Source: an uncultured Caldilineaceae bacterium (GTDB taxonomy: Bacteria; Chloroflexota; Anaerolineae; 4572-78; J111). From it: a stretch of DNA of 53,551 nt. This document shows, piece by piece, positions 1-28,019 of the stretch (the stretch's first letter is position 1; each line of letters opens with the position of its first letter). The notes below the pieces were generated by a model. The model was not told where the DNA came from, did not search any database, and saw only the letters and a list, made by a program, of their open reading frames with translations. The stretch is from positions 15,324 through 68,874 of the forward strand of contig CAYOXS010000001.1 of NCBI GenBank assembly GCA_964407935.1, in the 5' to 3' direction. Position numbers and translations under genes: made by a program.

Positions 1-629
1 ACCGGCTTGCCGGCCTCGCTGCCGCGCTGGCGTTCGGCCAGCTTTTCGTGGTGCTGGAGCTTGTACAGGGTTTTGATTTCCTCGATGCTGTCTTCGAGCT
101 GGTCAATTTTGCGGGTGTGGCGCATTGTTGAGGCCAGCAGATTGGCCAAACTGGTGAGGCAGGCAATATCTTCGGGCGGAAAGGCATCGAGCTTGCCGCA
201 TTCCAGCCGCAGCACACCCAGTTTTTCGCGGCCAAATTTCAGCGGGATAGCCAGTTCTGAGTTGTGGGGCGGCTGGTCGCCGGCCGGTTCAAGATAAGCG
301 TAGGGGCTGGCGCTGATGTTGGGCACGTAGATAGTTTCGTCACGCCGGAGCGCATCACTGACAATATTAACCTCGTCCACCGAAAATAAATCCGGAATTT
401 GGGTGACGGGTTTGCTGCTGCTGCCTTTTTCAAGGTAGAGCCACACATCGTTGCCAGAGGCGGAGAGCTGGTAAATTTGGGCGGCCAGGTAGCCCAAACT
501 GGCCAGCAGCCGGTCGATGGCGGCCGACAGAATAGCTTCGGTGGCCTCATCGGCGGTGATGAGTTGGGTGATTTCCTGCAGCAGGCTGAGCTGGCGCGCG
601 CGTTTTGCGGCGGTGGTTGTTTTACTCAT
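1..629 (-). CDS. GAF-domain protein, 5' part only (the gene runs off the left edge of the window)
   Basis: This ORF is absent from the ORF track because it has no stop inside the window. The reverse complement of 627-629 is ATG. It reads MSKTTTAAKRARQLSLLQEITQLITADEATEAILSAAIDRLLASLGYLAAQIYQL...SELAIPLKFGREKLGVLRLE, a GAF-like pattern followed by a coiled-coil-like stretch. The start overlaps the upstream stop (ATGAGTAA, 629 down to 622). Confidence 0.7.
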   Translation of the reverse strand, partial: MSKTTTAAKRARQLSLLQEITQLITADEATEAILSAAIDRLLASLGYLAAQIYQLSASGNDVWLYLEKGSSSKPVTQIPDLFSVDEVNIVSDALRRDETIYVPNISASPYAYLEPAGDQPPHNSELAIPLKFGREKLGVLRLECGKLDAFPPEDIACLTSLANLLASTMRHTRKIDQLEDSIEEIKTLYKLQHHEKLAERQRGSEAGKP

Positions 630-3600
630 TGGCCGGTCCTCCCGTGCGTGAGTCCCCGTTGGATTTTGGCGGGGCAGCCAGGTGAATGTAGGCGCGCTTG
701 TTGGCAATGGCGTTGCCTACTTCTTTGACGGTGGTCTGCAAAATGGTGTCGAGGTTAGTTGACGCCCGCACGCGGGTGGTAATTTCTTTGATGAGCGCCT
801 CGCGGCGAGCGGCCTGCTGGCTGGCCCGGTAACGTTTGGCGTTGTCCAGCGCCAGCACGGTTTGGCTGATGAGCGCCTTCAAAAAACGAACGTGCGTGTC
901 GGTGACGGTGGCGGTGAGCGAGCGGTTAAAGCCGGCTTCTACCAGCCCCACGTTTTCGTGGCGCAGCACTACCGGCGTAAACAGGCGCACCCAGTTGGCG
1001 TGCCCTTCAACATCGTACAATTCCTGGTTAAAACGAGGGTCCCAGCCGGAAATAATTTCGGTTTTGCCGCTGCGGACAATATCGGCCATGATGTCGCCGC
1101 CGTCCAGCGGCTGCACGGCGCGGGCCAACTGGTTTTCCGACAATCCCACCCCGCCCCAGGCTTTAATCTGCTGGCTGGCCGGCTCTACCATCGACAGCAT
1201 TACGTACTCAAAGCCAATTTCAGAAATACAGGCTTTAAAGAAGATGTCCAGAATATCGTCAATATCCAGCGTGCCGGCCAGTTGCTGGCTTACCTGCTGC
1301 AGGGCGGCGGTTTCGTGCAGCCGTTCTTCGGCCTCTTTTTGAGCGCGGGCCACGTGTTCAAACAGGCGGGCGTTGGTCAGCGCGTTGGCCAACTGGTCGG
1401 CCATTGTTTGGAGCATGGTGATGTCCTCGTTGGAAAAGGCGTTGCGCTCGGTGCTTTGCACAGTGATCGCGCCCAGCACTTCGTCGCGGCTGATCAGCGG
1501 CAGGGCCATTTCCGAGTGGGTATCGGGCAGAACGGGGTTGACAAAACGCACCGCTTCCTCGCCCACATCAAGAGCGATCCGCGCTTTGCGGTTGGCCACG
1601 CTCCAGCCAATCATCGACTCGCCGCCAATTTTCAGCCGGTGCTTCCGGGCAATCTGGATTCGGCCGGCTTTGCCGGTGCCGGCGCGCAACACGGCCCATT
1701 CTCTGGCTTCGTCAACCAAAAACAGCCCCACGTAGTAAAAGCCAAAACTGTTGCGGATGAGGTTGACCGAGGTATTGATCAATTCGTCAACATCCAAAAT
1801 GGAGCTGGCCGCCTGGCTCACTTCGGCGGCGGTTTGCAGCCGCTGGGTACGGTAGTTGATGGCTCGCAGCAGTTCCCGGTTTTCCAGCCAGATGGTGAGC
1901 TGATCGGCCACCACCTGCCCAATTTCAACGTCATTTTGCGAAAAGGCGTAGCCGCTGCCTTCTGCACCCACCGCCAGCGCGCCGATCACCGTATTTTGCA
2001 TAATCATTGGGATGAACACCAGCGACTGCACCGCTTCGTCCTGCTGCCAGAAGCGGGGGCTGGTTTTGGTGAGCGGATGCCGGCGCACGTCGTCGATGAC
2101 CAGCGGCGTTTTGTGCTCAATCAAATGGCGGCCCACCGTGTCCTGCTGCGCCGAAAATGACAGGTTGCTGGGCACGGGCCGGCCTTTTACCACCAGCGCC
2201 CGCACCTTGCTGAAATCTTTGGCGTGCTCAAAGCGCAGCACGCTGCCGTAGGCCGGCTGAATGTTGAGCAGGCGTAAATATTCTACCAGCACGGTTTCGT
2301 ACAGTACCTGTTCTCTGGCGGCGCTGGCAATAGCGTTGCCAATCCGGTACAACGACTCGGTCCGTTCCAACGCCATCAGCAGCCCCTCTTCGGCGCGCTG
2401 CCGGTCGGCGATTTCCTGCTGGGCCCGCTGGAACAGCATGGCGTTTTCAATGGCGTTGGCCAACTGGTCGGCCATGGTCTGCAAAAAGATGATGTCTTCG
2501 CGGCTGAAGGCGGCCTGGTCGCGGCTTTGCAGGGTGATCGCGCCGATGGCTTTGGTGTGGTACAGTAGCGGCAGGGCCATCTCCGAGCGGGTTTCGGGCA
2601 GGTACGGCTGGTTGAAAACCACGGCTTCCTGGCCCACATCGAGGGCCAGATTGGGCTGGCGGTGCAAAATGCAGCGGCCAATGGGCGATTCGTCATCGAG
2701 TTTGAGGCGGTATTCGGCGGCCAGCAGTTCCGGCCCGGCCGGGGGGGTGCCGGCCATCAGGTTGGCCCACTCGCCGCTGCCGTCTACCAGAAATATGCCG
2801 GCAAAGTACAGGTCAAAGCGGTCCAGCATCAGCGCCGCCGCCGATTTGAGCAGGCTGGGCAAATCCACCAGCGAGCTGGCCGCCCGCACAACTTCGGCGG
2901 CGGTTTCCATCTGGATGGCCCGGTAGGCCGCTTCCTGTATAAGCTGGCGGTTGCTCAGGGCCATGCCGGCCTGATCGATCATGGCCAGCCAGAAGCGGCG
3001 GGTTACCTCCGGGAAACTGGCGGGTGTGGTAAAGTGAACCAGCACCACCCCGATTTTTTGGCCGATGAAGCTGAGCGGCAAAATGGCGCTCGAATGCGCG
3101 CCGGCGGGCGCAAAACAGCCTCGCTGTTCGGCGGACAGGCGTGGGTCGGCGGCGATGTCTTCTACAAACACGGCGTCGGCAGCACTGAGAATATCGCGCA
3201 GCGGCGACTCGGGCAGGTAAATTTGGGCGGGGGCGGGGCCAGCGGCGCTGCCTGGTTTGGTCCAGCTATCGCGCAGTTCCAGCCAGATGGGTTCGTCGTG
3301 CACGCTGCGAATACGGTAGGCGGCAATCTGGCAGGGGTCGTACCGCCGAATCTGGTTGAGCAGCGCGGTAAAGATTTGCCGCTCGCTGAGCGAGGTGGCA
3401 ATTTGCTGGGTGCCGGTGTACAGCGCCGACATTTCGGCCACAAACTGCTCCCGCTCGGCTTCGTGAGCGCGGCGTTCGGTGACATCGTGGCTCAGGCCCA
3501 ACAGGTACTCTGTTTCGCCGCCTTCGCCGGGAATGGGGATGAGCCGGGTGTAGGCGACGTGCTCGGCGTTGTCGGCCCACAGCGTTTTGTCTTCGTGCTC

Positions 3601-4920
3601 AAAAATTTTGTTGGACTCAAACACCACATCGTCGCGGCGATAAAATTCGGCGGCCAGTTCCGGGGCAAAAAAATCGCTGTCGGTTTTGCCCAGCAGCTTG
3701 TTTTTGGCATAGCCCAGCACCCTGGCGTTGGCCTGATTCATGGCAATCCAGGTGTGGTGGCGGTCTTTAATAAAAATGGGGTCGGGGATGTGATCAATCA
3801 CGGTTTGCAGAAAACGGCGGCTGTGTTCGGCTTCGGTGTACAACCGCGCTTTTTCAATGGCCGCGCCGGTTTGCGAGGCCAGCAGCGACAGGGTGTACAA
3901 ATCGTTTTCGTTGAAGGCTTGCGGGTTAGAAAAGTGCAGCACCTCGATAGCGCCCACAATTTTGTCCTGGCTGTGAATGGGCACATTGAGCACCGAGCGC
4001 ACGGTTTGGCCAAAATTAAACTTTTTGGCCAGCGGATGCTCCGGCCAGTTGGCGGCCAGCACCGCCTCGTGGGTTAGCACCACGTGGCCGCTCAGGCTGG
4101 CGGTGGCTGGTTCGATGGTGTTAACGTGCAGCCCGGCGGGCGGGCGATAGGCCGCTTTAATTTGCAGCGTCTGGCTTGAAGCATCAAAAAAGCGCAGCAG
4201 GCACGCATCGGCGACCACCAGTTTGGCGCTGAGGTCAACAATATCGGCCAGCAATTTATCAAGGTGATGGGCGTTGCTGATTTGCAGGTTGATGCTGTGC
4301 AGCGTGATCAACTGTTCAAGCTGCTGGTCGGCGCTGGCGTAGAGGATGGCGTTTTGCAGGGTGTTGGCCAGTTGGACGGCCACGCTGTTTTGAAAAAGCC
4401 GCACAAACTGCGGGGTGAGCTGCGGGGCCGATGGCTTTACCAAAATAGCGCCCACAATTCGGCCCCGGTTGAGCAGCGGAAAGGCGGCTTCGGTGATGTC
4501 TGCGTCTGCGCCGGCCGGCTGCGGCTCCTGCTGGAGAATGGCCCGGCCAACCAGCGACTCGCCATCGATTTTGATTTTTTGGCCGGCCGGGGAGTCGTCG
4601 CCGGCGGCGGCGCGACATTCGGCCCACTTTTCGGTGCGGGTGGTTAAAAAAATGAGCACCTGCGCAAAGCCAAAGTGGTTTTGGATAATATTGGCCGAAA
4701 TATCCAGCAGTTCATCCACGTTGGCTATTGAACCGGCGGCGTCTGAAATAGCCGCGGCTGTTTCCAGCAGCAGTTCCTGCTGGCCGGCCAGCTCGGATAG
4801 CTGGCCCAGCCCGGCCAGCACCGGCCCCAGCGATTGCTGGCTGTCTGCCGGCAGGCCGGCGATGGCTTGGGCCAATTGGTCAACCCGGGTTTGAAGTAGT
4901 TCTGAGACTTTGCTGCTCAT
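622..4920 (-). CDS. Giant multi-GAF protein (about 7 GAF domains plus one PAS) with no recognisable output domain
   Basis: 1432-aa ORF preceded by GAGGGA before the ATG. GAF-type modules recur, each ending in motifs such as PDTHSEMALPLISRDEVLGAITVQS...EDITMLQTMADQLANAL. One PAS module is present (IPDPIFIKDRHHTWIAMNQANARVLGY). I could find no H-box, HATPase, GGDEF, EAL or HTH segment by eye. Confidence 0.9.
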   Translation of the reverse strand: MSSKVSELLQTRVDQLAQAIAGLPADSQQSLGPVLAGLGQLSELAGQQELLLETAAAISDAAGSIANVDELLDISANIIQNHFGFAQVLIFLTTRTEKWAECRAAAGDDSPAGQKIKIDGESLVGRAILQQEPQPAGADADITEAAFPLLNRGRIVGAILVKPSAPQLTPQFVRLFQNSVAVQLANTLQNAILYASADQQLEQLITLHSINLQISNAHHLDKLLADIVDLSAKLVVADACLLRFFDASSQTLQIKAAYRPPAGLHVNTIEPATASLSGHVVLTHEAVLAANWPEHPLAKKFNFGQTVRSVLNVPIHSQDKIVGAIEVLHFSNPQAFNENDLYTLSLLASQTGAAIEKARLYTEAEHSRRFLQTVIDHIPDPIFIKDRHHTWIAMNQANARVLGYAKNKLLGKTDSDFFAPELAAEFYRRDDVVFESNKIFEHEDKTLWADNAEHVAYTRLIPIPGEGGETEYLLGLSHDVTERRAHEAEREQFVAEMSALYTGTQQIATSLSERQIFTALLNQIRRYDPCQIAAYRIRSVHDEPIWLELRDSWTKPGSAAGPAPAQIYLPESPLRDILSAADAVFVEDIAADPRLSAEQRGCFAPAGAHSSAILPLSFIGQKIGVVLVHFTTPASFPEVTRRFWLAMIDQAGMALSNRQLIQEAAYRAIQMETAAEVVRAASSLVDLPSLLKSAAALMLDRFDLYFAGIFLVDGSGEWANLMAGTPPAGPELLAAEYRLKLDDESPIGRCILHRQPNLALDVGQEAVVFNQPYLPETRSEMALPLLYHTKAIGAITLQSRDQAAFSREDIIFLQTMADQLANAIENAMLFQRAQQEIADRQRAEEGLLMALERTESLYRIGNAIASAAREQVLYETVLVEYLRLLNIQPAYGSVLRFEHAKDFSKVRALVVKGRPVPSNLSFSAQQDTVGRHLIEHKTPLVIDDVRRHPLTKTSPRFWQQDEAVQSLVFIPMIMQNTVIGALAVGAEGSGYAFSQNDVEIGQVVADQLTIWLENRELLRAINYRTQRLQTAAEVSQAASSILDVDELINTSVNLIRNSFGFYYVGLFLVDEAREWAVLRAGTGKAGRIQIARKHRLKIGGESMIGWSVANRKARIALDVGEEAVRFVNPVLPDTHSEMALPLISRDEVLGAITVQSTERNAFSNEDITMLQTMADQLANALTNARLFEHVARAQKEAEERLHETAALQQVSQQLAGTLDIDDILDIFFKACISEIGFEYVMLSMVEPASQQIKAWGGVGLSENQLARAVQPLDGGDIMADIVRSGKTEIISGWDPRFNQELYDVEGHANWVRLFTPVVLRHENVGLVEAGFNRSLTATVTDTHVRFLKALISQTVLALDNAKRYRASQQAARREALIKEITTRVRASTNLDTILQTTVKEVGNAIANKRAYIHLAAPPKSNGDSRTGGPANE

Positions 4921-4932
4921 AAGCTGTTCCCT

Positions 4933-7900
4933 CTACGACGACGCATCGCCGTTGCGTTTGGCGGTTTGTGGCGGCAGTTGCAGGGCAATGCGCCCCTGCG
5001 ATGTGCCAATCACTTTGCCCAACTCGGTGATGGTGGTTTTCATAATGTCGTTAACGTCGGTGGCGTTGCGGATTTTGCCGGTAATTTCACGGATAATCTC
5101 TTCGCGGCGAGCCCGTTTCTGCGAGTCATCCAGCAGGCGGATGTTTTCCAGCGTGACAATCATCTGCCGGCCAACCGTGGTAAAGAAGCGAATCTGGTTG
5201 GCGCTCATCTTTTGCAGCGGGCTTTTGTAGCTGGCCATAAAATAGCCCAGCCGCTCGTGGTAGGCCGTTAGCGGCACAACCAACTGCGATGAAATTTGCA
5301 GTGCGGCCAGAGCTTCGCGCATTTGGGCCGAAAGGCGCGGGTCGGTTGCTACGTCTTCAACTAAAAACGCTTCGTCGGATGAAATTTCATGTTCCAAAAT
5401 AAAGTCCGTCACTTTGAAGCGGCTGCCGGGAGCCAGAGCCGGCTGGCCGTCGCTGCTCCAGACGGCTTTCACTTCAACAAAGGGATCGGCCGCGCCGGGC
5501 TGCGTTTGGTTATAAATAAAGATGGTGGCCGCATCGACGCCGGTGGTGGCCATTGAATTGATGGCCAGCCGGTAAACCGTATCTTCATCGCGGGCCGAAG
5601 AAATGGCCTGGGTGAGCAGGTACAGGGTTTCCGCTTCTGACAGGGCAATTTGCGATTGGGTGAACAGTTCGGCGTTTTTGATGGCGTTGGCCAACTGGTC
5701 GGCCATCGTTTGGAGCATGGTGATGTCTTCGTTAGAAAAGGCCAGCCGTTTGGTGCTTTGCACGGTCACCGCGCCCAGCACCTCGTCGCGGCTGATCAGC
5801 GGCAGGGCCATTTCCGAGCGGGTATCGGGCAGCACCGGGTTGACAAAGCGTACCGCCTCTTCGCCCACGTCAAGGGCAATCCGGGCCTTGCGCTGGGCCA
5901 CGCACCAGCCAATCATCGACTCACCACCGATTTTGAGTTTGTGGTTTTTGGCCAGTTGAATGTTGCCCGCTTCACCGGTGCCGGCTTTGAGCACAGCCCA
6001 TTCGCCGGCCTCATCGAGCAGGAAAATCCCAACGTAGTAAAAGTCAAAATGGTCGCGGATGAGGTTGACCGAGGTTTCGATCAGGGCGTCGATGTTGAGG
6101 ATGGAGCTGGCCGCGCGCGAGACCTCGGCCGCGGTTTGCAGGCTGATGGAACGGTACTGGGCTTCTTCCAACAGTTGCCGGTTTTCCAGCCAGATGGTGA
6201 GCTGATCGGCAATGGCCTGACCAATTTCAACATCTTCGTCAATAAACATGTGGTCGGGGTTGGTCGCGTCGATGATGATGTCGCCCACCAAAGTGCCGCG
6301 AATGAGCAGCGGCAGCACCAGCATGTGCGTTACCTGCTGCTGGCTGCGGGTGTCTCGGGCCGATTTGACCAGCGGGCTTTCGGCCGGGTTGTTGATGAGC
6401 AGCGGCCGGGGGTCCTGCCGGAGTCGGTTGAAAATCCGGTCTTCGGAAACGGGTAAAATGAGTTGGGGCGGCGCCGGGCTGCCCTCAATAAAACGCGCTT
6501 CGGCCACGTTACTGTTGGCCGCCCGGTTAAAGAGCATAATTGCGCCCTGCTGCAAGCCCAACAGATTCAGGTATTCGCCCAAAACGGTTTCAAAGGTGCT
6601 GCGGCGTTCGGTGGCGGTAGACAGGGCGGCGCTAATGCGGAACAGCGTTTGGGTGCGTTCCAGCGTGCGCCGGGTTTCGCTGATCAGGCGTTCGCGTTCA
6701 AGTTCGCGCTGTTTGATGTGGGTAATATCCTGGATGATGCCAATGAGATAGTCCGGCCGGGTTTGGTTGGCGGTGAGCGCCAGCGGCACTTTGCGGGTAT
6801 ACAGGGTGCGGGTGCTGCCCGAAGCGTCGGTGATGGTTTCTTCGGTTTCGTGCGGCTCACCGGTGGTGAAAACCTGGTTGTCCTGCTCCCAAAAGAAATC
6901 GGCTTCGGCGGTGTTGGTCAGAAAATCGTAGTCGCTTTTGCCCAGAATTTCTTCTTCCGGCAGGCCAAAAATACCCTGGGCAAAGCTGGTGTTCACCACC
7001 ACCCAGCGATGCTCCCGGTCTTTGATAAAAATGGGGTCGGGGAGCTGGTCGATGATGGTTTTCATAAACGTCTGGCTTTCGCGGACGGCCTCAAACAGCC
7101 GGCTGTTTTCGATGGCGTTGGCCGCCAGCAGCGCCACCGAGTCGAGCAGCGAAATGTCGTCGTTGCCAATACGGTGGCCGGGCCGGTCATCGTATATTTC
7201 AAGCAGGCCGATGACTTCATCGCGCAGCAAAATGGGCACAAAGGCCATCACTGTACCGTGATGCCGGGTGAGATAATCAAACTCGCGGCCGGCGGCTTCC
7301 GGGTCGTCGGCGTAGATGATGAGTTCCTGTTTGGTGGCAATTACTTTGGTCAGGTTGACAAAATCGGCGGCGGGCGCGCGCTGGCCGGCATCGACTTTAA
7401 AAATTGAGCCTTTGCGAGCGTAATCGCTGATGGTGTACAGGGTGTCGCCGGCTTCCAGCAGGGTCAGCGCGCAGCGGCCGATGTGGAGCATTTCGGCGGT
7501 TTCCGAGACAAGAATGTGGGTGGTCTGTTCCAGGCTGAGGGTGCTGCTGATGCGCGTGCCAATGCGATAGAGCATGGCCTGTTCGTGCAGGCGGCGCTGG
7601 GTTTCTTCAAACAAGCGGGCGGTTTCGAGGGCGGTGGTAATCTGATCGGCCATAATTTGCAGCGCTTCGATGTCTTCGGCGGCAAAGGCGTTGGGCTCAA
7701 CGCTCTGCACATCGAGCGCGCCAATGGTGACGCCGCGGGAAATCAGCGGCAGGGCCATTTCTGAGCGGGTATCGGGCAGGAGCGGGTTGTTAAAATGGAC
7801 GGCGTCTTTACCCACGTCGAGGGCAATGCGCGGCTTGGCGTGGAAGGTAACAAAGCCCACAATTGAGTTGCTGCCCACGGCCAGCCGGTGCGGCCGTTCA

Positions 7901-9756: not shown

Positions 9757-9848
9757 AACTGTATCTCCGACAGTGACATACCGGCGTGATTACGCTGGCT
9801 GTTGAGTTTTTAATGAACAAAGGCTCCGCCCAAATAGTGCGAAACCGG

Positions 9849-10304
9849 TTAACTTTGATACCCAAGGTCCCAAACTGATTCCCCCTGTAAAATTGAAATG
9901 ATCTGATTGGGAAATTTATCGGGATCGATGGGTTTGCCCAGAAAACCGTCAAAACCGGCCAGGCGGGCTTTTTCCATAGCCGTGGAGTTGGCGTCGGCGG
10001 TTACGGCCACAATTCTGGTGTTTTCAAAACGGGGGTCATTTTTTAATTTGGCCAACGCATCGTACCCGTCTTCGTAAGGCAGGTGCAGGTCCATGAGCAC
10101 CAGATCAACCCGGGGCATAGTATCGGCAAATTCAACCACCTGCCAGCCCGAGGCTTTCCATTCGTACCGGCGCACGCCGACAAAAGCCAGCAGCCGGGCA
10201 ATTAACACCAGGTTTTGCAGGTTGTCTTCGACAACCAGCACGTAGGCATCTTTGGGATTAACCGGTTCGTAGCGGGTGGACTCCGTGGTCGCTAGCTGGT
10301 TCAT
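9849..10304 (-). CDS. Single-domain response regulator (receiver only)
   Basis: Receiver motifs are VLVVEDN (acidic pocket), LVLMDLHLPYEDG (phospho-Asp), IVAVTAD and FLGKPI. The start overlaps the upstream stop as ATGA (10301-10304). Confidence 0.9.
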   Translation of the reverse strand: MNQLATTESTRYEPVNPKDAYVLVVEDNLQNLVLIARLLAFVGVRRYEWKASGWQVVEFADTMPRVDLVLMDLHLPYEDGYDALAKLKNDPRFENTRIVAVTADANSTAMEKARLAGFDGFLGKPIDPDKFPNQIISILQGESVWDLGYQS

Positions 10305-10681
10305 TGGTAACCACCTTTAATAAAATTCTCTACCTGCACAGGTAGATCATCAACGTCAATGGGTTTGGAAATATAACCGTCGCAGCCGGCCTGAAACACG
10401 TTTTCACGGTCTTTTTTCATGACGTTGGCGGTCATGGCCACAACCGGGATGTGCGCGGTTTTTTTGTTTTTCTTCAGGGCGTCGGTCACCTCGTAGCCGT
10501 CAATATCGGGCAGGTTGATATCGGTAATGATCAAATCCGGCAGCAATTCCTCGGCCTTTGATAAACCTTCTGTGCCGGTGCCGGCGGGGATAACTTCGTA
10601 GCCTTCAATTTCAAGCACGCGTCTGACCAGGGTCATGTTATCAAAATTATCTTCAATATATAAAACTTTGGCCTTGCCCAT
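10301..10681 (-). CDS. Single-domain response regulator (receiver only)
   Basis: Receiver motifs are VLYIEDN, LIITDINLPDIDG, VVAMTAN and YISKPI. I prefer the ATG at 10681 (MGKAKVLYIEDN), which is preceded by AAGGAG, over the track start at 10702. Confidence 0.88.
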   Translation of the reverse strand: MGKAKVLYIEDNFDNMTLVRRVLEIEGYEVIPAGTGTEGLSKAEELLPDLIITDINLPDIDGYEVTDALKKNKKTAHIPVVAMTANVMKKDRENVFQAGCDGYISKPIDVDDLPVQVENFIKGGYQ

Positions 10682-10698
10682 ACAAAAAAGACTCCTTA

Positions 10699-11115
10699 TC
10701 AACCTGGGTGCGCGAGCCGGGAATTGTTACTGGTGGCAAAAAGATTGTAGGTTAAATCGCGCAATTGCGCGGTGGGGAAGGGTTTGGTCAGGTAACCGTC
10801 AACGCTGAGTTCTTTGACTTCCGTTTGCACATCACAAGAACCAAAGGCCGTCATCAAGATGACCTTAATATTGGGCTGGAGTGAGCGGGCAACCTCTACC
10901 AGGGTAAAACCGGTAATATCCGGCATTTTTAAATCGGTAATGAGCAAATCGTAGGTGGTGCTGGTTAACTTGCCCAGGGCATCGTCACCACAAGAAGCGA
11001 CATCGATGATGAAGTTGCGGCCGCTCTCTTGCAGCGATTGCTGCAAAAAAAAGATTAACGTGGCCTCGTCATCAACAATTAATATGCGCCTGGGAAAAGT
11101 ACCATAATCTGGCAT
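10699..11115 (-). CDS. Single-domain response regulator (receiver only)
   Basis: Receiver motifs are ILIVDDE, LLITDLKMPDITG, VILMTAFG and YLTKPF. I prefer the ATG at 11115 (MPDYGTFPRRILIVDD), which is preceded by AAGGAG, over the track start at 11169. Confidence 0.85.
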   Translation of the reverse strand: MPDYGTFPRRILIVDDEATLIFFLQQSLQESGRNFIIDVASCGDDALGKLTSTTYDLLITDLKMPDITGFTLVEVARSLQPNIKVILMTAFGSCDVQTEVKELSVDGYLTKPFPTAQLRDLTYNLFATSNNSRLAHPG

Positions 11116-11207
11116 AAGAGCTTGCTCCTTATTGTTAAAGACCATACTAACGCTCTTAATATAACACAAAATTAAAGCCAGGCGACGTTACAGGATTGTT
11201 ACAATTG

Positions 11208-11915
11208 TTAACGTGTGCTCATTAAATAACGGCCGCCGGCAACGGTGGTAACGTATTTGGGCGCGGCCGGATCCGGTTCCAGTTTGTGGCGCAGCCGATG
11301 AATATGCACCCGGGCAATGGCCCGCGCGTCAGTTTCGTTGGCCTCGTAGCCGCGCACCAGCCGCACCAGCGTCATCGCGTCGATGGCCTGATTGGCGTAG
11401 GACATAAGCGTGGTCAAAATATCAAATTCGGTGGGGGTCAGCTCGATGCGCTCCCCCGCCCGCAGCACCTGCCGCGAGGCCCGGTTTAATTGAATGTCCT
11501 GCACTTCCAGCACCTCACCGGTGTCCGCCGAGCGCGGTGGGGGCGCGGCGGCGCGCCGGGCAATGCCGTCGGCCACGCTGGCCAGCAGTTCTTCGGTGTT
11601 GTACGGTTTGGTCAGATAATCGTGCGCGCCCTGACGCAGCGCCTCAATGGCGGAATCAACGGTGGCGTAGGCGGTTAAAATGATCACGCTGGTATCGGGC
11701 GTGGTTTTGCGCAAATGGCGCATTATTTCCAGCCCGTTCATATCGGCCAGTTGCAAATCCAGCAGCGCCACTTCAAAGGTGTTGTGGGCAATCAATCGCA
11801 GCGCCGTTTGGCCGTTGGCGGCTTCAGATACGTGATAACCTTTGTCTTCAAGGTGCAGCCGCAAAAAGTAACGCAGCGTATCTTCGTCGTCTACCACCAA
11901 AATTTTGTGTGTCAC
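11208..11915 (-). CDS. OmpR/PhoB-family response regulator (receiver plus winged-helix DNA-binding domain)
   Basis: The receiver shows ILVVDDEDT, ALLDLQLADMNG and YLTKPY. The C-terminal winged helix shows LTPTEFDILTTLM...RVHIHRLRHKLE. The likely start is the GTG at 11915 (VTHKILVVDD), preceded by GGAG and overlapping the kinase stop as GTGA. Confidence 0.9.
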   Translation of the reverse strand: MTHKILVVDDEDTLRYFLRLHLEDKGYHVSEAANGQTALRLIAHNTFEVALLDLQLADMNGLEIMRHLRKTTPDTSVIILTAYATVDSAIEALRQGAHDYLTKPYNTEELLASVADGIARRAAAPPPRSADTGEVLEVQDIQLNRASRQVLRAGERIELTPTEFDILTTLMSYANQAIDAMTLVRLVRGYEANETDARAIARVHIHRLRHKLEPDPAAPKYVTTVAGGRYLMSTR

Positions 11916-13801
11916 AGTTGTCTCTGCTCCCCAACAGGCAGTGATAAAGTAAAGCACGCGCCGCGCCCGGCCTCACTGGCAACGGTGATGTCGCCGCCGT
12001 GTTCCTCAATGATGCGCCGGGCCACGCTCAACCCCAACCCTGTTCCCTTGGTTTTGGTTGTGTAAAAGGGGTCAAAGATTCTGGGCTGGGTATCCGGGTC
12101 AATGCCCGGCCCGGTATCCGACACCCTGATAATGACCGCCGGCCGGGTGGCGTCGATGGCGGCAGAAATGGTGATGGTTCCCCCCTGCGGCAAAGCCTGG
12201 GTAGCGTTGATGACTAAATTGGTTAACACCTGTTCCAGCCGTTCGTTATCTACCCACAGGTTGGGCAACTGCTCGTCAATATTGATGACCAAAGCAGCGC
12301 CGCTGGCTTCAATTTGCGGCTGGCAGCGATGCTGAACCATGCGCACAATCGGCGGCAGCGGCTGCGCGGTTTTGTTCAATTGCAGCGGCCGGGCCACAAA
12401 CAAAATATCTTCCAAAATACGGTTGACCCGTTTGACCTCATTTTGGATCATCGCCGCGCCCTGCGCTTCGGCGGTGCCGGGCAGGGCGTTGCGGGTGAGA
12501 TAATCCACTCCGGCGGCGATGCCGGCCACCGGGTTGCGGATTTCGTGGGCCACCACTGCCGACATTTCGCCCAGCGCGGCCAGCCGGTCCAACCGGCGGT
12601 GTTCGGCTTCAAGAGCCTTGATCTCGCTCAAATCCTCAATAACGCCCACCGCGCCGTTTTCCTGGCCCAGTAAAGCCGTGCTGATAGAAATTGCCAGCGA
12701 GTGGCCGTTGCGGTGCGCCGCCAAAATTTCGGTTCTGGGTACGGCCTGCCCGCTGGCCAGGGTGGCGTTGAACACGCCGGCCAACTGTTCCGCCGCCGGG
12801 ATGGCCTGAGCCAGCGGCCGGTTGAGCGCCTGCTCAATGGGGCAGCCGAGCATGGCCGCCGCCGCCGGATTAAAGGCGGTGATTACCCCGGCCCGGTCAA
12901 TGGCGATCAGGCCGTTGGTCATATTTTTAATAATGTCTTCGTTAAATGCCCGCAGGTTTTCAGCCTGCTGGAAAAGCTGGCTGTTTTCAATGATTATGGC
13001 CAACTGGCCGGCCATCACCGTGAGCAAATCCAGGCTGATCTGCCCAAACGGGGCGCTGCCGGCTTCGGCGGTGAGAATCCCGGCCAACTGGCCTTTGATG
13101 AGCAGCGGCAGGGCCGCGCCAACAATGTTCACCCTGCCGGCGGCAGCGCTGATTAATTCGCCGCTGCCCAACACCCACACCGGCTGCCCGGACTCGGTAA
13201 CGGCCGTGAGCGCGGCCACCGGCAGCGTTGAGGCCGGGGCAACAGCCGGCACCACCGTTACCTCGGCGTTGCTCTGCGTGTTGAGCCAGGCCAGCCGCGC
13301 CGCGCCAAGCTGGGTGCAGGCGGTTTCCAGCACGCGCTGCACCAGCGACACCTCGCCGCCGGTAATTTGCAACATTTTGTTGATTTCCAGCAGCGGCAGC
13401 AGCGTTTGCAGCCGCAGGCTGTCGCGCAGCAGGTTGCGTTTGGCCAGGCTGGTTTCGATGGTTTGCACCAACTCTTTTGGCTCAAACGGTTTCATTAAAA
13501 AATCCTGCGCTCCCAGCCGGATAGCCCGAATGGCGTCTTCCATTGTGCCGTAACCGGTAATTAAAACCACGGTGATGTGCGGGTCAATTTCTTTGGCTAT
13601 TTTCAGCAGCTCCAGCCCGTCAATCCGCGGCATTTTAATATCGGTCAGCAGCAGATCGAATGTTTCCTGCCGGAGCACGTTGGGCACGGCGGTGCTATCG
13701 GTAATGCCGGTTACCACAAAATTGTTGCGTTTTAAAATGCGCTCGCACGAGTGCATCACCGCCGGTTCATCATCGACAACTAAAATTCGTTCGCTTGCCA
13801 C
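11912..13801 (-). CDS. Sensor histidine kinase with N-terminal receiver: REC, GAF-like region, PAS, HisKA, HATPase
   Basis: The receiver shows [21 protein letters not shown] and FLMKPF. The PAS shows MTNGLIAIDRAGVITAFNPAAAAMLG. The H-box is VAHEIRNPVAGI and the ATPase region is DTGPGI...GTGLGLSVARRIIEEHGG. GTG start at 13801. Confidence 0.9.
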   Translation of the reverse strand: MASERILVVDDEPAVMHSCERILKRNNFVVTGITDSTAVPNVLRQETFDLLLTDIKMPRIDGLELLKIAKEIDPHITVVLITGYGTMEDAIRAIRLGAQDFLMKPFEPKELVQTIETSLAKRNLLRDSLRLQTLLPLLEINKMLQITGGEVSLVQRVLETACTQLGAARLAWLNTQSNAEVTVVPAVAPASTLPVAALTAVTESGQPVWVLGSGELISAAAGRVNIVGAALPLLIKGQLAGILTAEAGSAPFGQISLDLLTVMAGQLAIIIENSQLFQQAENLRAFNEDIIKNMTNGLIAIDRAGVITAFNPAAAAMLGCPIEQALNRPLAQAIPAAEQLAGVFNATLASGQAVPRTEILAAHRNGHSLAISISTALLGQENGAVGVIEDLSEIKALEAEHRRLDRLAALGEMSAVVAHEIRNPVAGIAAGVDYLTRNALPGTAEAQGAAMIQNEVKRVNRILEDILFVARPLQLNKTAQPLPPIVRMVQHRCQPQIEASGAALVINIDEQLPNLWVDNERLEQVLTNLVINATQALPQGGTITISAAIDATRPAVIIRVSDTGPGIDPDTQPRIFDPFYTTKTKGTGLGLSVARRIIEEHGGDITVASEAGRGACFTLSLPVGEQRQL

Positions 13802-16503
13802 AGTGAGTCTTCCTGTTGAGATTGGTCAGAAACCGGTTCTACCGGTAGGGTAACGGTAAATGAAGTGCCCTGGCCAGGCGTGCTATCGACGGTAATGGTG
13901 CCGCCGTGCTGCTCGATAATGCTGTAACTGATCGAAAGCCCCAGGCCGGTGCCCTGGCCTACTTCTTTGGTGGTGAAAAAGGGATCGAAAATTTTATCCA
14001 GATGTTCCGGGGCAATACCGGGGCCGGTATCGCTGACGGTGAGGGTGATGGTGGGCGGCTGGCTGTTGGGGTTGGCGCGGGTGGCAATTATCAGCTTGGC
14101 GGGCCGACCCTGATTGTTGTCCTCTAGCATGGCCTGAACCCCGTTATTTAGCAAATTGACCACAATCTGTTTAACCTGGTTGATGTCCAGATAGAGCGGC
14201 GGCAGTTCGGACAACGATTTTTCCAGATCGATTTTGTAGCTGACGCTTTTGGTGTACACCAAAAAAATGGCATCTTCAATGAGCTGGTTCATGTCGGCGG
14301 CCTGCCGCTTGGGCGAGCCGGTGCGGGCAAAATCCAGCAGGCCGCGCACAATATCGCGGGCGCGCTGGGCTTCGCGGTTAACCATGTCCAGGTCATCGCG
14401 GGCCTCGCCGTCGATGGTGGTGCCCGGCGGGCTTTCCAGCAGCAGGCTGGTTAGCCCCAAAATGCTGGTGAGCGGGTTGTTGATTTCGTGAGCGATGCCC
14501 GCCGCCAGTTCGCCTACGGCGGCCAGCTTGGCGCTCTGCACCAGTTGCGATTGGGTTTGGGCCAGCCGTTCGATGGTTTTGGTTTTTTCGGCGTACAACT
14601 GCGCGTTTTCTATGGCCGTGGCTGCCGGAGCCGCCAGCGCTTGCAGCAGTTCCTGATCGTCCTGGTTAAATATGCCGTCCCCTTTGTTCATCACCTCAAT
14701 CGCGCCGATGGTGTGGCCCTTGGTTTGCAGCGGCACGCACAAAATTGAGCGGGTGGTAAAGCCGCTGTGCTCATCGATGCCGGGGAAAAAGCGCTGGTCG
14801 GTGTAAACATCCGGCACAATTACCGGCTGGCCGTGTTCGGTAACCCAACCGGCCACGCCCCGGCCGCGAGCCATGCGCACCCCAATCACCGAATGGGCGC
14901 CTTTGCCGGAGGCCGCGGCAAACCACACATCCTGGCGCTGTTCATCCAGCAGCGCCACCGACGCGGCGGCCACGTTCATAATCTGGATGGCCTGGCTGGT
15001 AATGAGCGTGAGTATTTCCTGCAAATCCAGGCTGGAGGTGATGGCCTGGCCAATGTCGTTGAGCGTTTTCAATTCCTGCACCCGCCGGTGAATGGCATCG
15101 TACAGGCGGGCGTTTTCTATGGCAATGGCCAGTTGATCGGCCAATGTTTCCAGCGCCGCCACGTGATACCGCTCAAAGGCATCGAGCTGAGTGCTTTGCA
15201 AATCCAGCACGCCGATGGGTTTAGTGCCCATCACAATGGGTACGCACAGTTCGGAGCGGATGGCCTGCTGGCCGCCGGCCGGAATATAGCGCGATTCCTG
15301 CAATACATCGTTGGCCACAACTGTTTTGCGCGTGGCCGCCGCCCAGCCAACCAGCCCCTGTTCCATGCGGTAGGTGGGAATGTAATCTTCCGCGCCGGCG
15401 ACGGGCTGGCTCATTGACGATTTGGCGTGCAGTTCAACCAAATCTGCGGCGGGACTAACCAGATAAATGGCCGCGCTGTAAAACGTAAAACTGCGCCGAA
15501 TGGCCTGCACCACAGTGCGGAGCATCGCATCCAGGCTGAGAATAGAGGTGGCGGCCTGGCTCACTTCATTAATGAGCGCCAATTGCACCGAGCGCTGCAT
15601 TTGGTTTTTAAAGAGGATGGCGTTTTCAAGGGCCATGCCAATTTGGGCGGCGGCGGCCTCAAGCAGGGGCAGTTGGTCGGCGGTGAAATGGCCGGGCGTG
15701 TTGTGCCCCAGCAGATAGACGGCGCTGGCGTTGACCCGGCCCAAAAACAGCGGCAGCGCGACCACGGCATGGTCGGCGGCGGGCAGGTAGGGAGCGTGCA
15801 GCCAGCGCGAATCCTGCCGGGTGCTGCCGATGATGGCGGTTTGTCGCTGCCGCAGCACCCAGCCCTCCAATCCATTGGCTACCAGTCGCTGGGCAAATTT
15901 GCGGCCAACCGTGCGGTTCAATTCTTCCCGGCCCGGCTGCGTAGAGCGATAGTACATTACCTGCTCATCTTCCAGCACCAGCAGCGCGGCAAACGAGGCG
16001 TTCAGGTAGGGGGCCAGTTCCAGCACCCGTTCAAACAGGTCGTTGATATCCAGTTGGCCGCTCAGAAACTGGGTGATGCCAAACAACAGCGGCAAATGGT
16101 CAAGTTTTTGCGGTTCAATGTCAAAATCAGGTGAGCGGTGCGGAAAGTGGCGGCCAAGCTGGCTCAGCACATCATCCGGGCTGCGGTCAAGATGATGCAG
16201 CGAAATGTGGCGCGCCCGCAGCCAGGGCGGGAGTTCGTCTTTGGGGTTGGCGGAAAACACCAAAATTGTGGGCACGCGCACGTACTGGCCAGATCGAGGC
16301 TGGCGGGCCGTGGCAATATCCAGCAGCAGAATGTTGACCCCGGCCAGTTCCGAGACAAGGTCGGCATCCTGGCCCAGCAAAACGGTGAGGTAGCCTTGTT
16401 CCTGCAGGGTGGGGCGCAGCGCGGCCAGCCGGTCCCCGTCAATTAACGCGATGCGGATAGAGTGTTGGGCGAGCTTCACAAATTGCTGATCCTGCACTCT
16501 CAT
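13780..16503 (-). CDS. Sensor histidine kinase: REC-like N-terminus, about 3 GAF domains, HisKA, HATPase
   Basis: 907-aa ORF. The N-terminus is receiver-like (IALIDGD...ILLLDIA). GAF modules end in [14 protein letters not shown] and [13 protein letters not shown]. The H-box is [14 protein letters not shown] and the ATPase region is DTGPGI...[18 protein letters not shown]. It overlaps the next gene by 22 nt. Confidence 0.9.
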
Positions 16504-16543: not shown

Positions 16544-16571
16544 ACAGTATAACACGACCCCAAACGGGTCG
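16544..16571 (-). terminator. Possible weak terminator hairpin after the MFS gene
   Basis: Stem CGACCC (16555-16560) pairs with GGGTCG (16566-16571). On the minus strand it is followed by the moderately U-rich tgttatactgt. It lies between the MFS stop (16588) and the kinase start (16503). Confidence 0.3.
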
Positions 16572-16587
16572 CAACAGGATTTTGTGG

Positions 16588-17847
16588 CTACGCGGCAGGC
16601 TGCGACTTGAGGTGATAAACCGTGTGAACCAGCCAGATAACCGCCGTTACGGCACTGACCAGGCCCATTGTCAGGGCTATTTGATGGGGACTCCAGCCCA
16701 GGTTGTCGCTGGCCCAACCGGCCCACAATGTCGATGTTGCCGAGGCCAGAGTCATCATGGCCATATCAAAGGCGAAAACCCGGCCCAGGTAGCTGGGCGG
16801 CACTGTGAGTTGCAGCAGCGATGAGGCGTACACCCAGTTAATGCCGGTGCCGATGGTGCGAATAAACGTGGCCAGCAGTACAATGGGCAGCGACGCGCCC
16901 CAGCCCAGCAGTAGATAGCCGGCCAGCATCGCCAGATAGCCCACAAAAATGGCCCAATACATCGGCGATTTTTCGTCGCCGGTAATGCGGCGGGCCACCA
17001 CCGGGCCAAGCCCAGTGCCCAACCCCACCGCCAGATAGATTAGCCCCAGCGTGGCCGAGGCGTCGCGCCCCAGCGGAAATATCTGTTCCGCAAAGGTCAC
17101 CTGCACAATTTCAATCCCGCCAAAGGCCAGCGCCGAGGACGCTTTTAGCAGCGCTACCATCAGCGTGCCCGGCCGGTCCCACAGATAGCGCAGCCCGTCC
17201 ACAAACATGCCCCAGCCGGCACTGGCCGGCTGGTCGCCGGTATCGATAAGGCTGGCCCGGTCGCTGAGGCGGGTAATAAACCAGGCCGACAGCAGGAACG
17301 TGGCCGAGTCGATGACAAAGGCGCTGGTGATGCCCAGTGCCGCCGTCGCCAGCCCACCCAGCGCCGCGCCGAGCGCCAGCATGGTGCTCCAGGTAACGCT
17401 GGCCAGTGCGTTGGCCGTAACCAGATTCCGGTAATCGACAATGCCGGGCAGAATGGCGGCCCGGGTTGGCTCAAAAAAGGCGCTGATGCTCAACTGCAAC
17501 ACGGTGAGCACGTACAGCAGCCACACATTTTGCGGGGTGCGCACCAGCAAAAAACCGAGCACAATCACGGCCCGCAGCAGGTCGCTGGTAATCAAAATTT
17601 TGCGCCGGTCAAAACGGTCGGCCACCACACCGACCACCGGTCCAAGCAAAAAAGGCGGCAGCAGCCGGGCAATAAACAGGCCGCCAATGGCTAGCCCCGA
17701 GCCGGATAACTGGGCCACCAGTGCCGCCGAGGCGATCAGGTTGAACCAATCGCCCAACTGGCTGATAATCTGGCTGAACCACAGCCGCCGGAAATCGTGA
17801 TTGTGTTTGACCAGGGAGATGTAACTCTGCAACAGGGGCAGGCGCAT
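16588..17847 (-). CDS. MFS transporter
   Basis: The protein is multi-spanning and hydrophobic, with an MFS loop motif (ADRFDRRKIL). I prefer the ATG at 17847 (MRLPLLQSYISLVKHNHDFRRLWFSQ); the 57 codons of track extension up to 18018 are hydrophilic junk. Confidence 0.85.
   Translation of the reverse strand: MRLPLLQSYISLVKHNHDFRRLWFSQIISQLGDWFNLIASAALVAQLSGSGLAIGGLFIARLLPPFLLGPVVGVVADRFDRRKILITSDLLRAVIVLGFLLVRTPQNVWLLYVLTVLQLSISAFFEPTRAAILPGIVDYRNLVTANALASVTWSTMLALGAALGGLATAALGITSAFVIDSATFLLSAWFITRLSDRASLIDTGDQPASAGWGMFVDGLRYLWDRPGTLMVALLKASSALAFGGIEIVQVTFAEQIFPLGRDASATLGLIYLAVGLGTGLGPVVARRITGDEKSPMYWAIFVGYLAMLAGYLLLGWGASLPIVLLATFIRTIGTGINWVYASSLLQLTVPPSYLGRVFAFDMAMMTLASATSTLWAGWASDNLGWSPHQIALTMGLVSAVTAVIWLVHTVYHLKSQPAA
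17759..17811. repeat. Left copy of a 53-bp direct repeat (partner at 46064-46116)
   Basis: tggctgataatctggctgaaccacagccgccggaaatcgtgattgtgtttgac matches 46064-46116 at 52 of 53 positions by my alignment (mismatch 17803 g versus 46108 c). Confidence 0.85.
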
Positions 17848-26011: not shown

Positions 26012-26514
26012 TTTTGTCCCTTTATTGCTTTTTTTGTCTTTTCTGAGATCAACGCCAGAAGTACAAAAACAACTACATAGAACGCTCCAAACAGGATTGG
26101 CTCTCCCGGTAGCGGCACAGAATGAGCAGGCAAGGCAAACAGGGATATCAGGGCGCTATTTAGTGCTATGTAAATCAAGGCAACCATAAGCATAATGAGA
26201 ATATTCTTTAGCAGTTCTACTAAATAATCGCTGATCCGTTGCCAAAATGTGTTTTCGTGGGCGGGGCGTTTGGGGGCAATATTAAACATCATCCGCAGGC
26301 CCGGATTGATAATTATGATGTTGAATAACCCCATCACTAATCCCAGCGAAACTACAAAATCGATGATTGACTGTTGCGTGCCTAAATATGTGCCCCAGCC
26401 GATGAAAAAGTAGACAGCGCCGGCGGCCCACCATCGGATAATCAGGGAGATATTTCGGTCGGATAAATATTTTTGAAAACGGTGTTGTTTCATTATCATT
26501 GCCATTTCCATCAA
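26008..26514 (-). CDS. Small integral membrane protein, unknown family (168 aa, about 4 TM)
   Basis: Four hydrophobic segments (for example WWAAGAVYFFIGWGTYLG and ILFGAFYVVVFVLLALI). ATGA overlaps occur at both ends. I recognise no family. Confidence 0.65.
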   Translation of the reverse strand: MMEMAMIMKQHRFQKYLSDRNISLIIRWWAAGAVYFFIGWGTYLGTQQSIIDFVVSLGLVMGLFNIIIINPGLRMMFNIAPKRPAHENTFWQRISDYLVELLKNILIMLMVALIYIALNSALISLFALPAHSVPLPGEPILFGAFYVVVFVLLALISEKTKKAIKGQK

Positions 26515-28009: not shown

Positions 28010-28019
28010 AGGAATATCC

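Follow-up and report, generated by a model that had tools for sequence, protein, structure and literature searches.

Gene order in relatives indicates that uncultured Anaerolineae (Chloroflexota) conserve a two-component cluster of ~30 kb, of which positions 1–16503 of the window (the whole stretch of 53,551 nucleotides that was analysed) cover roughly one half. Two of the cluster products, the giant proteins A and B, are genuinely output-less arrays of GAF and PAS domains, and the gene that follows them almost certainly encodes, to go by its orthologues, a huge histidine kinase that we call HY. Since the HY orthologues are kinases and B and HY are fused in some relatives, a split sensor kinase of several subunits, set in a large phosphorelay cluster, explains the genes better than a free-standing ligand-binding scaffold does. 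Comparison of the loci and structural models together tip the balance towards a joint reading in which, within this conserved cluster, A and B would be sensor arms that dock their C-terminal tails into two truncated GAF domains (half-GAFs) of HY. The sequence-only reading had proposed a multi-component sensory or scaffold system; its two output-less arrays stand and the gene order is conserved, while the output-less third array does not hold up.

The ORF map and Pfam bear out nine packed genes on the minus strand, in the order that had been described (Table 1). The cluster order on that strand is HK1, HK2, OmpR-type regulator, three receivers, A, B, HY, a threonine-synthase-like/receiver fusion and a REC-kinase; the enzyme fused to a receiver, and then this fourth kinase, are found in relatives beyond the window edge. 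By the ORF map, neighbouring genes overlap by 4, 4, 8 or 22 nt or are separated by 12, 38 or 92 nt, in line with the overlaps of 4–22 nt or gaps below 100 nt noted earlier. The exception is the OmpR-type regulator, which in its longest ORF shares 46 nt with the gene before it. Coupling around the giants is tight, with a 12-nt gap and an 8-nt overlap in which the start of HY overlaps the stop of B (ATGAGTAA). Programmed frameshifting at this overlap is unlikely, because the same junction is a 6-nt gap in L002. Promoter-like sites show no clear enrichment in the region (11 vs 7.0 ± 2.4 in shuffles), a search for terminators within the cluster gave none that was convincing and no enrichment of terminator-like sites, and an Rfam scan of 1–16503 returned no matches.

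Table 1. Features of the minus-strand cluster, with positions in the window
Feature	Position (strand)	Description	Basis
HK1	13780-16503 (-)	907 aa; degenerate receiver-like N-terminus, 3 GAF, HisKA, HATPase_c	ORF + Pfam
HK2	11912-13801 (-)	629 aa; REC, weak GAF, PAS, HisKA, HATPase_c	ORF + Pfam
OmpR-type response regulator	11208-11957 (-)	249 aa; REC + Trans_reg_C	ORF + Pfam
Single-domain receiver 1	10699-11169 (-)	156 aa; acceptor residues D-D-D-T-K intact	Pfam + CheY alignment
Single-domain receiver 2	10301-10702 (-)	133 aa; acceptor residues E-D-D-T-K	Pfam + CheY alignment
Single-domain receiver 3	9849-10304 (-)	151 aa; acceptor residues E-D-D-T-K	Pfam + CheY alignment
Giant A	4933-9756 (-)	1607 aa; N-terminal coiled coil, GAF x5, PAS, GAF x3, C-terminal tail	Pfam, own HMMs
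Giant B	622-4920 (-)	1432 aa; N-terminal helical leader, GAF x2, PAS, GAF x5, C-terminal tail	Pfam, own HMMs
A tail	4975-5115 (-)	residues 1548-1594, RARREEIIREITGKIRNATDVNDIMKTTITELGKVIGTSQGRIALQL	orphan first third of GAF
B tail	679-810 (-)	residues 1371-1414, ARREALIKEITTRVRASTNLDTILQTTVKEVGNAIANKRAYIHL	orphan first third of GAF
HY 5' part	1-629 (-)	ATG at 629; first 209 codons = GAF1; ORF runs off left window edge	ORF + Pfam (one GAF)
Sigma-70-like promoter match	16546-16574 (-)	TTGCGA-17-TATACT, TG-extended; 84-nt gap upstream of HK1	consensus match only

The neighbourhood, for which conservation of the order HK-HK-RR-REC-REC-REC-GAF-GAF-GAF elsewhere had been put forward as a test, is kept in about 25 loci, with HY as the third of the GAF genes. 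The full gene order is present in the genome loci L001, L002, L003-L020 and L028 and in the metagenome loci L030, L031, L034 and L037. The A-B-HY order is invariant in about 25 Anaerolineae loci, genomes and metagenome contigs together, and orthologues of A take the same position in every related locus.

We scanned both complete giants with profile HMMs and found no known output domain. Pfam assigns eight GAF stretches (313 bits) and one PAS (residues 897-1012) to A, and seven GAF stretches (275 bits) and one PAS (residues 370-485) to B; the GAF matches (PF01590/PF13185/PF13492) are significant and span the GAF fold. Neither Pfam nor NCBIfam detects a kinase, GGDEF/EAL/HD-GYP, cyclase, phosphatase or DNA-binding domain in A or B, and HMMs made from the window's own kinases find no HisKA or HATPase_c in them. 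HMMs derived from GAF, PAS, REC and kinase segments of the window itself leave uncovered only an N-terminal coil of 30–50 aa and a C-terminal tail of ~60 aa in each giant, and the N-terminal leaders give nothing but weak coiled-coil-type noise in Pfam at E ≤ 10. The earlier count of about eight and seven GAF domains with one PAS each is thus reproduced by Pfam. An AlphaFold2 model of the last domain of B matches solved GAF structures in Foldseek with a probability of 1.00 and a TMt of ~0.8, and the B family comprises about 35 relatives without an output domain. A and B also share a collinear two-GAF block, with 58 % identity over 335 residues and a nearly identical second GAF.

HisKA and HATPase_c, the pair that makes a sensor histidine kinase, occur together in HK1 and in HK2 and in neither giant. 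The N-terminal ~130 aa of HK1 have no Pfam match and, when aligned to CheY, keep only two Asp positions (12 and 57); the REC of HK2 has its acceptor residues intact in the same type of alignment. Altogether, four kinases and nine receiver domains are encoded in the cluster. An HPt domain (PF01627) is absent, according to Pfam, from all window genes, from HY of L001 and L002 and from the PALP-REC orthologue of L001, and NCBIfam applied to PALP-REC and REC-kinase of L003 yields only threonine-synthase, receiver and kinase among the matches listed, with no HPt. A single weak HPTransfase match, in HK2, lies over the ATPase domain of this kinase. No HPt that would stand between a hybrid receiver and a terminal regulator in a multi-step phosphorelay was thus found among the genes scanned; one could be encoded elsewhere in the genome.

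The window holds only 209 codons of the third gene. This fragment aligns with 58 % identity, from residue 1, to a 2313-aa protein of L001 with the architecture GAF-array-HisKA-HATPase_c-REC-REC, and an orthologue of this architecture occurs in 20 genome loci, including L003, a 96 %-identical relative. All HY orthologues checked in related genomes are hybrid histidine kinases of 2000–2400 aa, and the HisKA and HATPase_c domains that they carry in every related locus checked contradict the description of three output-less arrays "in triplicate". HY (~2300 aa) contains about nine full GAFs, two half-GAFs, HisKA, HATPase_c, REC and REC; exactly two of its GAFs lack their N-terminal third.

Adjacent and collinear here, a B-type array and the kinase are a single ORF in three of the 26 genome loci (L022, L025 and L026), by two different junctions; by this comparison B and HY are a split gene. 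In L022, an ORF of 2848 aa joins B, to residue 1430, directly to HY from residue 207. In L025 and L026 (3163 and 3159 aa), the last GAF of B runs into an HY GAF at about residue 481, and these ORFs lack the tail as well as HY GAF1, half-GAF 1 and GAF2; residues 1-1321 of these ORFs align to B of L011 and the remainder to HY of L011. A neighbour-joining tree of the kinase core places L025 and L026 beside this split locus L011 and L022 elsewhere, which implies at least two independent events; the fusions are few and stem from two or three events. The sequence-only reading had envisaged that homologues elsewhere might be fused GAF-kinase genes, which turned out to be so for B and not for A, of which no fused form exists among the loci compared. 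A protein search seeded with the L022 junction did not return the fused protein among its matches.

The junction domain of L022 covers the whole Pfam GAF profile (1-133/133), whereas an HY half-GAF alone reaches only profile positions 50/82-136. When the B tail was placed in silico in front of half-GAF 1, the Pfam GAF match extended back to 1-133 and its score rose from 34.6 to 47.9 bits. In the L022 fusion, the B tail and the first half-GAF of HY are accordingly one complete GAF. In L008 and L010, HY has no GAF1; its start, which overlaps the stop codon of B, lies some 30 residues ahead of the half-GAF's first hairpin, such that the boundary between the B and HY genes lies inside one GAF.

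The tails themselves (~45 aa) correspond to the opening third of a GAF, comprising its linker helix, the next helix and the first strand. Each matches positions 6-42 of a 168-position GAF HMM made from the giants' own domains, and the B tail aligns to residues 11-62 of solved cyanobacteriochrome GAFs; Pfam finds nothing in either tail at E ≤ 10. The A tail is conserved over 17 A orthologues, and the B tail, with an identity of 0.72-0.87 over 32 B relatives, is among the best-conserved parts of the protein; each is conserved, yet the two are distinct from one another. In the AlphaFold2 model of the last GAF of B with its tail, the GAF has a pLDDT of ~90, the last helix continues into the tail as one helix (residues 139-184), and the tail projects off the GAF with its strand segment unpaired and the pLDDT down to 58-71 there. 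Foldseek matches to tandem-GAF structures (e.g. PDE5A 3lfv) cover ~215 of 230 residues, indicating that the tail sits where the next domain would begin.

Tails and half-GAFs also agree in number. A split HY always carries a single full half-GAF 1 and a single full half-GAF 2, in a cluster with two tail-bearing giants; in the B-fused HYs of L025 and L026, half-GAF 2 is the only one, alongside one tail-bearing giant. L039, with a single giant beside a PAS-containing kinase of 2287 aa, follows the same count pattern as these two loci, although its junction could not be placed. As a test of docking, conservation along HY does not decide the matter: the strand-bearing part of half-GAF 1 is moderately conserved (0.34-0.51) and its helix more so (0.76). 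An AlphaFold2 monomer model of the HY N-terminus (P0213 residues 1-502, from a four-sequence alignment) has a pLDDT of 47 and is uninterpretable. Since the jackhmmer profiles of the half-GAF socket drifted to the C-terminal halves of ordinary GAFs, only full-length matches of at least 100 aa with E ≤ 1e-28 were used. Lone half-GAFs in distant proteins proved to be full GAFs of ~180 aa partly covered by the narrow HMM, and count neither for nor against complementation.

In the mechanism that we propose, the B tail would complete the first half-GAF of HY and the A tail the second, the latter pairing following by elimination and counting, with both features present in every locus. Each pairing would be a non-covalent fragment complementation that grafts A and B as sensor arms onto the helical spine of the kinase. 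Ligand binding by ~26 GAF and two PAS domains would then set the autophosphorylation of HY, from which phosphoryl groups could flow to its own receivers, the cluster receivers, the OmpR-type regulator and the enzyme-receiver fusion. More tentatively, and with rather less confidence than the sensor-arm reading as such, we suggest that a split GAF may serve as a non-covalent connector: a tail of ~45 aa (helix-helix-strand) would insert into the N-truncated half-GAF of its partner, making the half-GAF the meeting point of two arrays on one kinase and allowing kinases of more than 5000 residues per protomer to be assembled from separate genes.

We looked at how widely such tails occur. The tail profile matches 7976 cluster representatives, and in 54 of the 134 new top matches the tail is at the extreme C-terminus, with a kinase domain in none of the 54. 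In some families, tandem genes carry one half-GAF and one tail each; together with the tail-ended kinase-less arrays, these suggest that, through such docking, chains of sensor proteins could be built widely in Chloroflexota. L036 and L040, from other Chloroflexota families, end in a half-GAF followed by a tail on a single chain, so that the tail may be an element that generally terminates arrays rather than a connector in trans. Such observations fit the view that neither A nor B ever binds HY and that both are soluble GAF-array proteins in their own right, such as ligand buffers or homodimeric scaffolds, the tail being a generic C-terminal cap or dimerisation element and the fusions incidental shuffling among paralogous GAFs. 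The kinase-less tail-ended arrays are indeed numerous and varied, and GAF arrays recombine easily, A and B sharing their two-GAF block (58 %, 335 residues). We nevertheless regard this view as unlikely: both fusion types are collinear B-HY and fall exactly at the tail/half-GAF region, the gene boundary of L008 and L010 lies inside a GAF, the tail and half-GAF 1 are lost together, the tail is not packed on its own GAF in the AlphaFold2 model, and the A-B-HY order does not vary in about 25 loci.

Still less probable is a role of A and B elsewhere in the cluster, either in regulating HK1, HK2 or the downstream REC-kinase or in scaffolding the three single receivers, with the tail as a receiver-docking peptide or a kinase dimerisation helix. 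With four kinases, nine receiver domains, acceptor residues intact in all receivers and no HPt detected, an organising scaffold would be plausible, but HY is the sole partner tied to A or B by fusion or count, and the tail, by homology a GAF N-terminus, would most naturally pair with the rest of a GAF. Three collinear, nearly abutting, paralogous genes, and extra breaks inside B in L009 and L013 (possibly errors), might suggest that sequencing frameshifts or pseudogenisation broke up a single giant gene. We reject such an origin of the A/B/HY split, by artefact or decay, in view of its conserved boundaries: about 25 independent assemblies, which span 44–96 % identity in the matched B segment, show the same two, each accompanied by a start codon of its own, a conserved N-terminal leader and a conserved tail, and a low-complexity stretch precedes the stop codon at the tail end in every case.

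Multi-GAF and multi-PAS proteins that lack an output usually go under the name "GAF domain-containing protein", their signalling route unexplained. For one large group of them, the cluster offers a concrete and testable answer, namely that the output-less arrays may be detached arms of a neighbouring kinase, with the conserved tail marking the attachment. Were split-domain docking true, it would represent a new route to modular sensors encoded in several genes, a rule by which orphan sensor arrays in metagenomes could be matched to kinases and a natural split-domain pair reusable in sensor-kinase engineering; were it false, this would be a conserved but otherwise ordinary large two-component cluster of uncultured Anaerolineae.

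That no described pathway matches the cluster, as the sequence-only reading had it, agrees with our search of the literature on tandem or stand-alone GAF proteins in Chloroflexi and on split kinases, in which we found no account of the cluster or of tail-ended kinase-less arrays. Adjacent collinear genes that are fused in relatives are, by the Rosetta-stone argument, functionally and usually physically linked, and B and HY, a single ORF in some relatives, form such a pair. Genes normally split between domains; in contrast, the B/HY split cuts through a domain, and conservation of the orphan fragment is among the highest in the protein. The proposed mechanism, in which one chain would supply a missing strand and helix to another, recalls split-protein reassembly and the donor-strand complementation of chaperone-usher pili, an analogy that extends to mechanism and not to descent; our literature searches found no report of fragment complementation for GAF domains. 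The only link to phytochrome and cyanobacteriochrome photosensors is the alignment of the tail to the generic GAF N-terminal helix-strand. HY and the fusions of L022, L025 and L026 are ordinary members of the multi-GAF hybrid sensor histidine kinases of Chloroflexota and cyanobacteria, with tandem GAFs, long helices, HisKA/HATPase_c and C-terminal receivers, and the predicted fold of the B-last-GAF model matches tandem-GAF structures. Here, however, about 3000 sensor residues are in two separate output-less proteins, and the break between B and the kinase passes through a GAF. Stand-alone sensors that control a separate kinase are known from the nitrate sensor NreA with the kinase NreB in Staphylococcus and from H-NOX proteins with their kinases; A and B resemble these in being output-less sensory proteins encoded beside a kinase and presumably acting by protein-protein contact. 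NreA is a single GAF of ~150 aa with a known ligand, whereas A and B, compared by architecture only, have seven to eight GAFs and a PAS with a dedicated conserved tail and look like detached parts of a kinase.

The third gene of the series, taken in the sequence-only reading for another GAF array without output, starts with an ATG at position 629, overlaps the stop codon of B (the 1432-aa giant) by 8 nt, and is present in the window for 209 codons only, encoding one GAF. We reached two syntenic contigs through B homologues and showed that the gene following B in both of them encodes a protein of 2313 or 2369 aa composed of a GAF array, HisKA, HATPase_c and two receivers (Pfam). From residue 1 onwards, the window fragment shares 58 % identity with the first 207 residues of the corresponding protein of a related locus, L001. 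A scan of one genome per species gave 26 loci, all from MAGs labelled Anaerolineae, Anaerolineales, Caldilineaceae or Chloroflexota and including a 96 %-identical relative (L003). In our domain annotation, this hybrid histidine kinase (HY, 2000-2400 aa) follows B as a separate gene in 17 of the 26 loci and is fused to B in three more. Because the same kinase stands after B in relatives, the third gene is almost certainly not an output-less array: the kinase output is present in the relatives and, by orthology, is expected for the gene cut by the window edge.

The two complete giants do lack an output domain, as had been claimed. None was found by Pfam or NCBIfam in A (1607 aa; eight GAF stretches and one PAS) or in B (seven GAF stretches and one PAS), and HMMs built from the window's own domains account for everything except a short coil at the N-terminus and a C-terminal tail of ~60 aa. 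The length of B varies from 359 to 2191 aa among relatives; its last GAF and tail are always kept. B is shrunk to one or two GAFs plus tail in two loci, and the same form is seen in proteins P0134, P0152 and about 20 others (359-403 aa). A collinear two-GAF block is common to A and B (58 % identity over 335 residues); its second GAF (LPDT[RH]SEMALPL type) is near-identical between them, suggesting duplication or gene conversion between the giants. In two further loci the B-type gene lies in two ORFs (577 + 854 aa in L009, 568 + 1125 aa in L013), the upstream piece stopping shortly after a GAF has begun; either another natural split or an assembly frameshift could account for this.

A split gene, which the sequence-only reading had named as evidence that would count against it, is what we found for one giant: B and HY form one ORF in L022, L025 and L026 while remaining separate in the 17 loci. 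In L022, a single 2848-aa ORF follows B up to residue 1430 of 1432, then directly HY from residue 207. The ORFs of L025 and L026 (3163 and 3159 aa) align to B of L011, their closest split relative, and then to HY from about residue 481. In a distance tree of kinase cores, L025 and L026 fall beside the split L011 and L022 falls elsewhere; thus, at least two separate B-HY fusion or fission events took place. That the split of A, B and HY is an artefact is effectively excluded.

We also located the break. B ends with a conserved ~45-aa segment, ARREALIKEITTRVRASTNLDTILQTTVKEVGNAIANKRAYIHL, and A with its counterpart, RARREEIIREITGKIRNATDVNDIMKTTITELGKVIGTSQGRIALQL; in both, a short low-complexity stretch separates this segment from the stop codon. 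Against a 168-position GAF HMM trained on the domains of the giants themselves, this tail matches positions 6-42, which span the linker helix, the following helix and the first strand; in alignments with solved cyanobacteriochrome GAFs it corresponds to residues 11-62. The B tail (identity 0.72-0.87 in 32 relatives) equals the best GAF of the protein in conservation; the A and B tails are each conserved, yet distinct from one another. Exactly two modules of HY match just the last third of the HMM (positions 107-168), at about residues 239-301 (half-GAF 1) and 1402-1464 (half-GAF 2), and the sequence ahead of each is too short to accommodate the absent helix and strand. Half-GAF 1 follows the B tail directly in L022, and the resulting 150-aa segment matches the whole Pfam GAF profile; half-GAF 1 alone covers no more than the C-terminal half to two-thirds of a profile, namely positions 50-136 of 136 in PF13185 and 82-133 of 133 in PF01590. 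Joining the B tail to half-GAF 1 in silico gave a full-length GAF match and raised the score from 34.6 to 47.9 bits. In L008 and L010, HY is devoid of its first GAF; it starts about 30 residues ahead of where the half-GAF forms its first hairpin, and this start overlaps the stop codon of B, so the gene boundary in these genomes lies inside a GAF domain. In all split clusters HY has both half-GAFs, each full and present once, and there are two tail-bearing giants (A and B). HY retains half-GAF 2 only, with A as the one tail-bearing giant, in L025 and L026 (B fused, unit lost) and in L039, where one giant precedes a 2287-aa kinase containing a PAS, an architecture from which we infer the fused type; in L022, HY has one internal complete domain plus half-GAF 2, and A again is the one tail-bearing giant.

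An AlphaFold2 model of the last GAF of B with its tail (15-sequence alignment, mean pLDDT 81.6) shows a confident GAF, the last helix of which runs unbroken into the tail. The second tail helix is modelled at pLDDT 58-71, the strand segment is unpaired, and the tail is not packed against the GAF from which it extends. Foldseek confirmed the GAF fold and, because its tandem-GAF matches cover ~215 of 230 residues, the tail is predicted to sit where a helix linking two domains, and then the beginning of the second, would be. Such geometry would be expected of a tail that requires the body of another domain after it.

The evidence best supports a reading of A and B as sensor arms of HY that are encoded by genes of their own. 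Natural fusions of two kinds, together with an adjacency that never varies and close coupling of the genes, link B to HY. The B tail would dock to HY through a split GAF, as suggested by domain homology, by the variants in which the two are fused or the gene boundary lies within the domain, by the loss of tail and half-GAF together, and by the model geometry; A, by elimination and counting only, would dock at half-GAF 2.

The tail profile matched 7976 cluster representatives among 1.84 billion proteins, many of them through the N-termini of ordinary GAFs. In 54 of 134 new top matches the tail lies at most 45 residues from the C-terminus (representative search, within handles P0232-P0357), although a few of these may be ORFs cut at contig ends; 43 of the 54 are at least 700 aa long and none contains a kinase domain. 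A single chain thus appears not to combine the tail with a kinase output. In other Chloroflexota families, tandem genes each end with a half-GAF and then directly a tail, which could reflect a chain-like, head-to-tail assembly of sensor proteins, or equally a more general array-terminating or cis role of the tail. Three or more tandem output-less arrays with such ends occur on two metagenome contigs. It is mainly because half-GAF and tail share one chain in these families that we remain cautious about split-GAF docking. A rival in which A and B act on their own as buffers or scaffolds and the tail is a generic cap would accord with a terminating role; the B-HY fusions and adjacency argue for the sensor arms. 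A second rival has A and B acting on other kinases or receivers of the cluster, which in full comprises four kinases and nine receiver domains, with no HPt domain detected; against it stands the same link of B to HY.

The ORF listing upheld the packing of nine co-directional genes, whose junctions range between an overlap of 22 nt and a gap of 92 nt; the spacing fails solely at the regulator, where taking the longest ORF gives a 46-nt overlap. A promoter-like match lies immediately upstream of HK1, and no convincing terminator was found inside the cluster. Alignment with CheY showed the acidic pocket, acceptor Asp, Thr and Lys intact in all four receivers and in the HK2 receiver. The N-terminus of HK1 has no Pfam match and keeps two Asp positions alone; it shows a receiver-like alternating pattern and, because most acceptor-pocket residues are absent, is probably a pseudo-receiver. 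Elsewhere, a region of GC 0.44-0.51, against 0.55-0.61 across most of the remaining window, may be a compositionally distinct insert.

Gene order is also conserved: HK1, HK2, OmpR-type regulator, three receivers, A, B, HY, a ~560-aa PLP-enzyme/receiver fusion and a ~440-aa REC-kinase recur in this order in genome loci and in four further metagenome contigs. Because the order in relatives continues after HY, the cluster reaches about 10-11 kb past the left window edge. The PLP-enzyme/receiver fusion follows HY in nearly every related locus and may be an enzymatic output of the cluster; because it scores 254 bits against NF006050 (curated cut-off 303), its enzyme is a relative rather than a confirmed threonine synthase.

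Features of the window and of related loci (L handles)
Feature	Location	Strand	Length	Description
Nine-gene cluster	1-16503	-
HK1		-	907 aa	GAFx3-HisKA-HATPase_c (Pfam)
HK1 N-terminus	16112-16503	-	first ~130 residues	receiver-like
HK2		-	629 aa	REC-(weak GAF)-PAS-HisKA-HATPase_c (Pfam)
OmpR-type regulator		-	249 aa	REC-Trans_reg_C (Pfam)
Three small proteins		-		one REC apiece (Pfam)
Two-GAF block of A	5640-6669	-
Two-GAF block of B	1344-2364	-
MFS transporter gene	16588-18018	-	476 aa	adjoins cluster upstream, same strand
Low-GC region	26001-34000
tRNA-Leu	50928-51014	+		anticodon TAA; sole Rfam or ARAGORN RNA match in window
Shrunken B	L018:9581-10660; L020:9470-10669
B-type gene in two ORFs	L009:6059-10510; L013:5573-10666
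PLP enzyme with C-terminal receiver	L003:17702-19381; L001:21325-23004			threonine-synthase-like; left of window edge
Tandem arrays with half-GAF-tail ends	L040:2-7763; L036:1725-8693			metagenome contigs

Our literature search found no description of giant output-less GAF arrays with a conserved GAF-fragment tail, nor of a sensor kinase split within a GAF domain, and the connector mechanism itself has a substantial chance of being new. HY and its fused forms, in contrast, are ordinary multi-GAF hybrid kinases, and fission/fusion pairs such as B-HY are a familiar type of evidence. Accessory sensors of kinases are likewise known, as with the single-GAF NreA, which works with NreB, and the H-NOX proteins.
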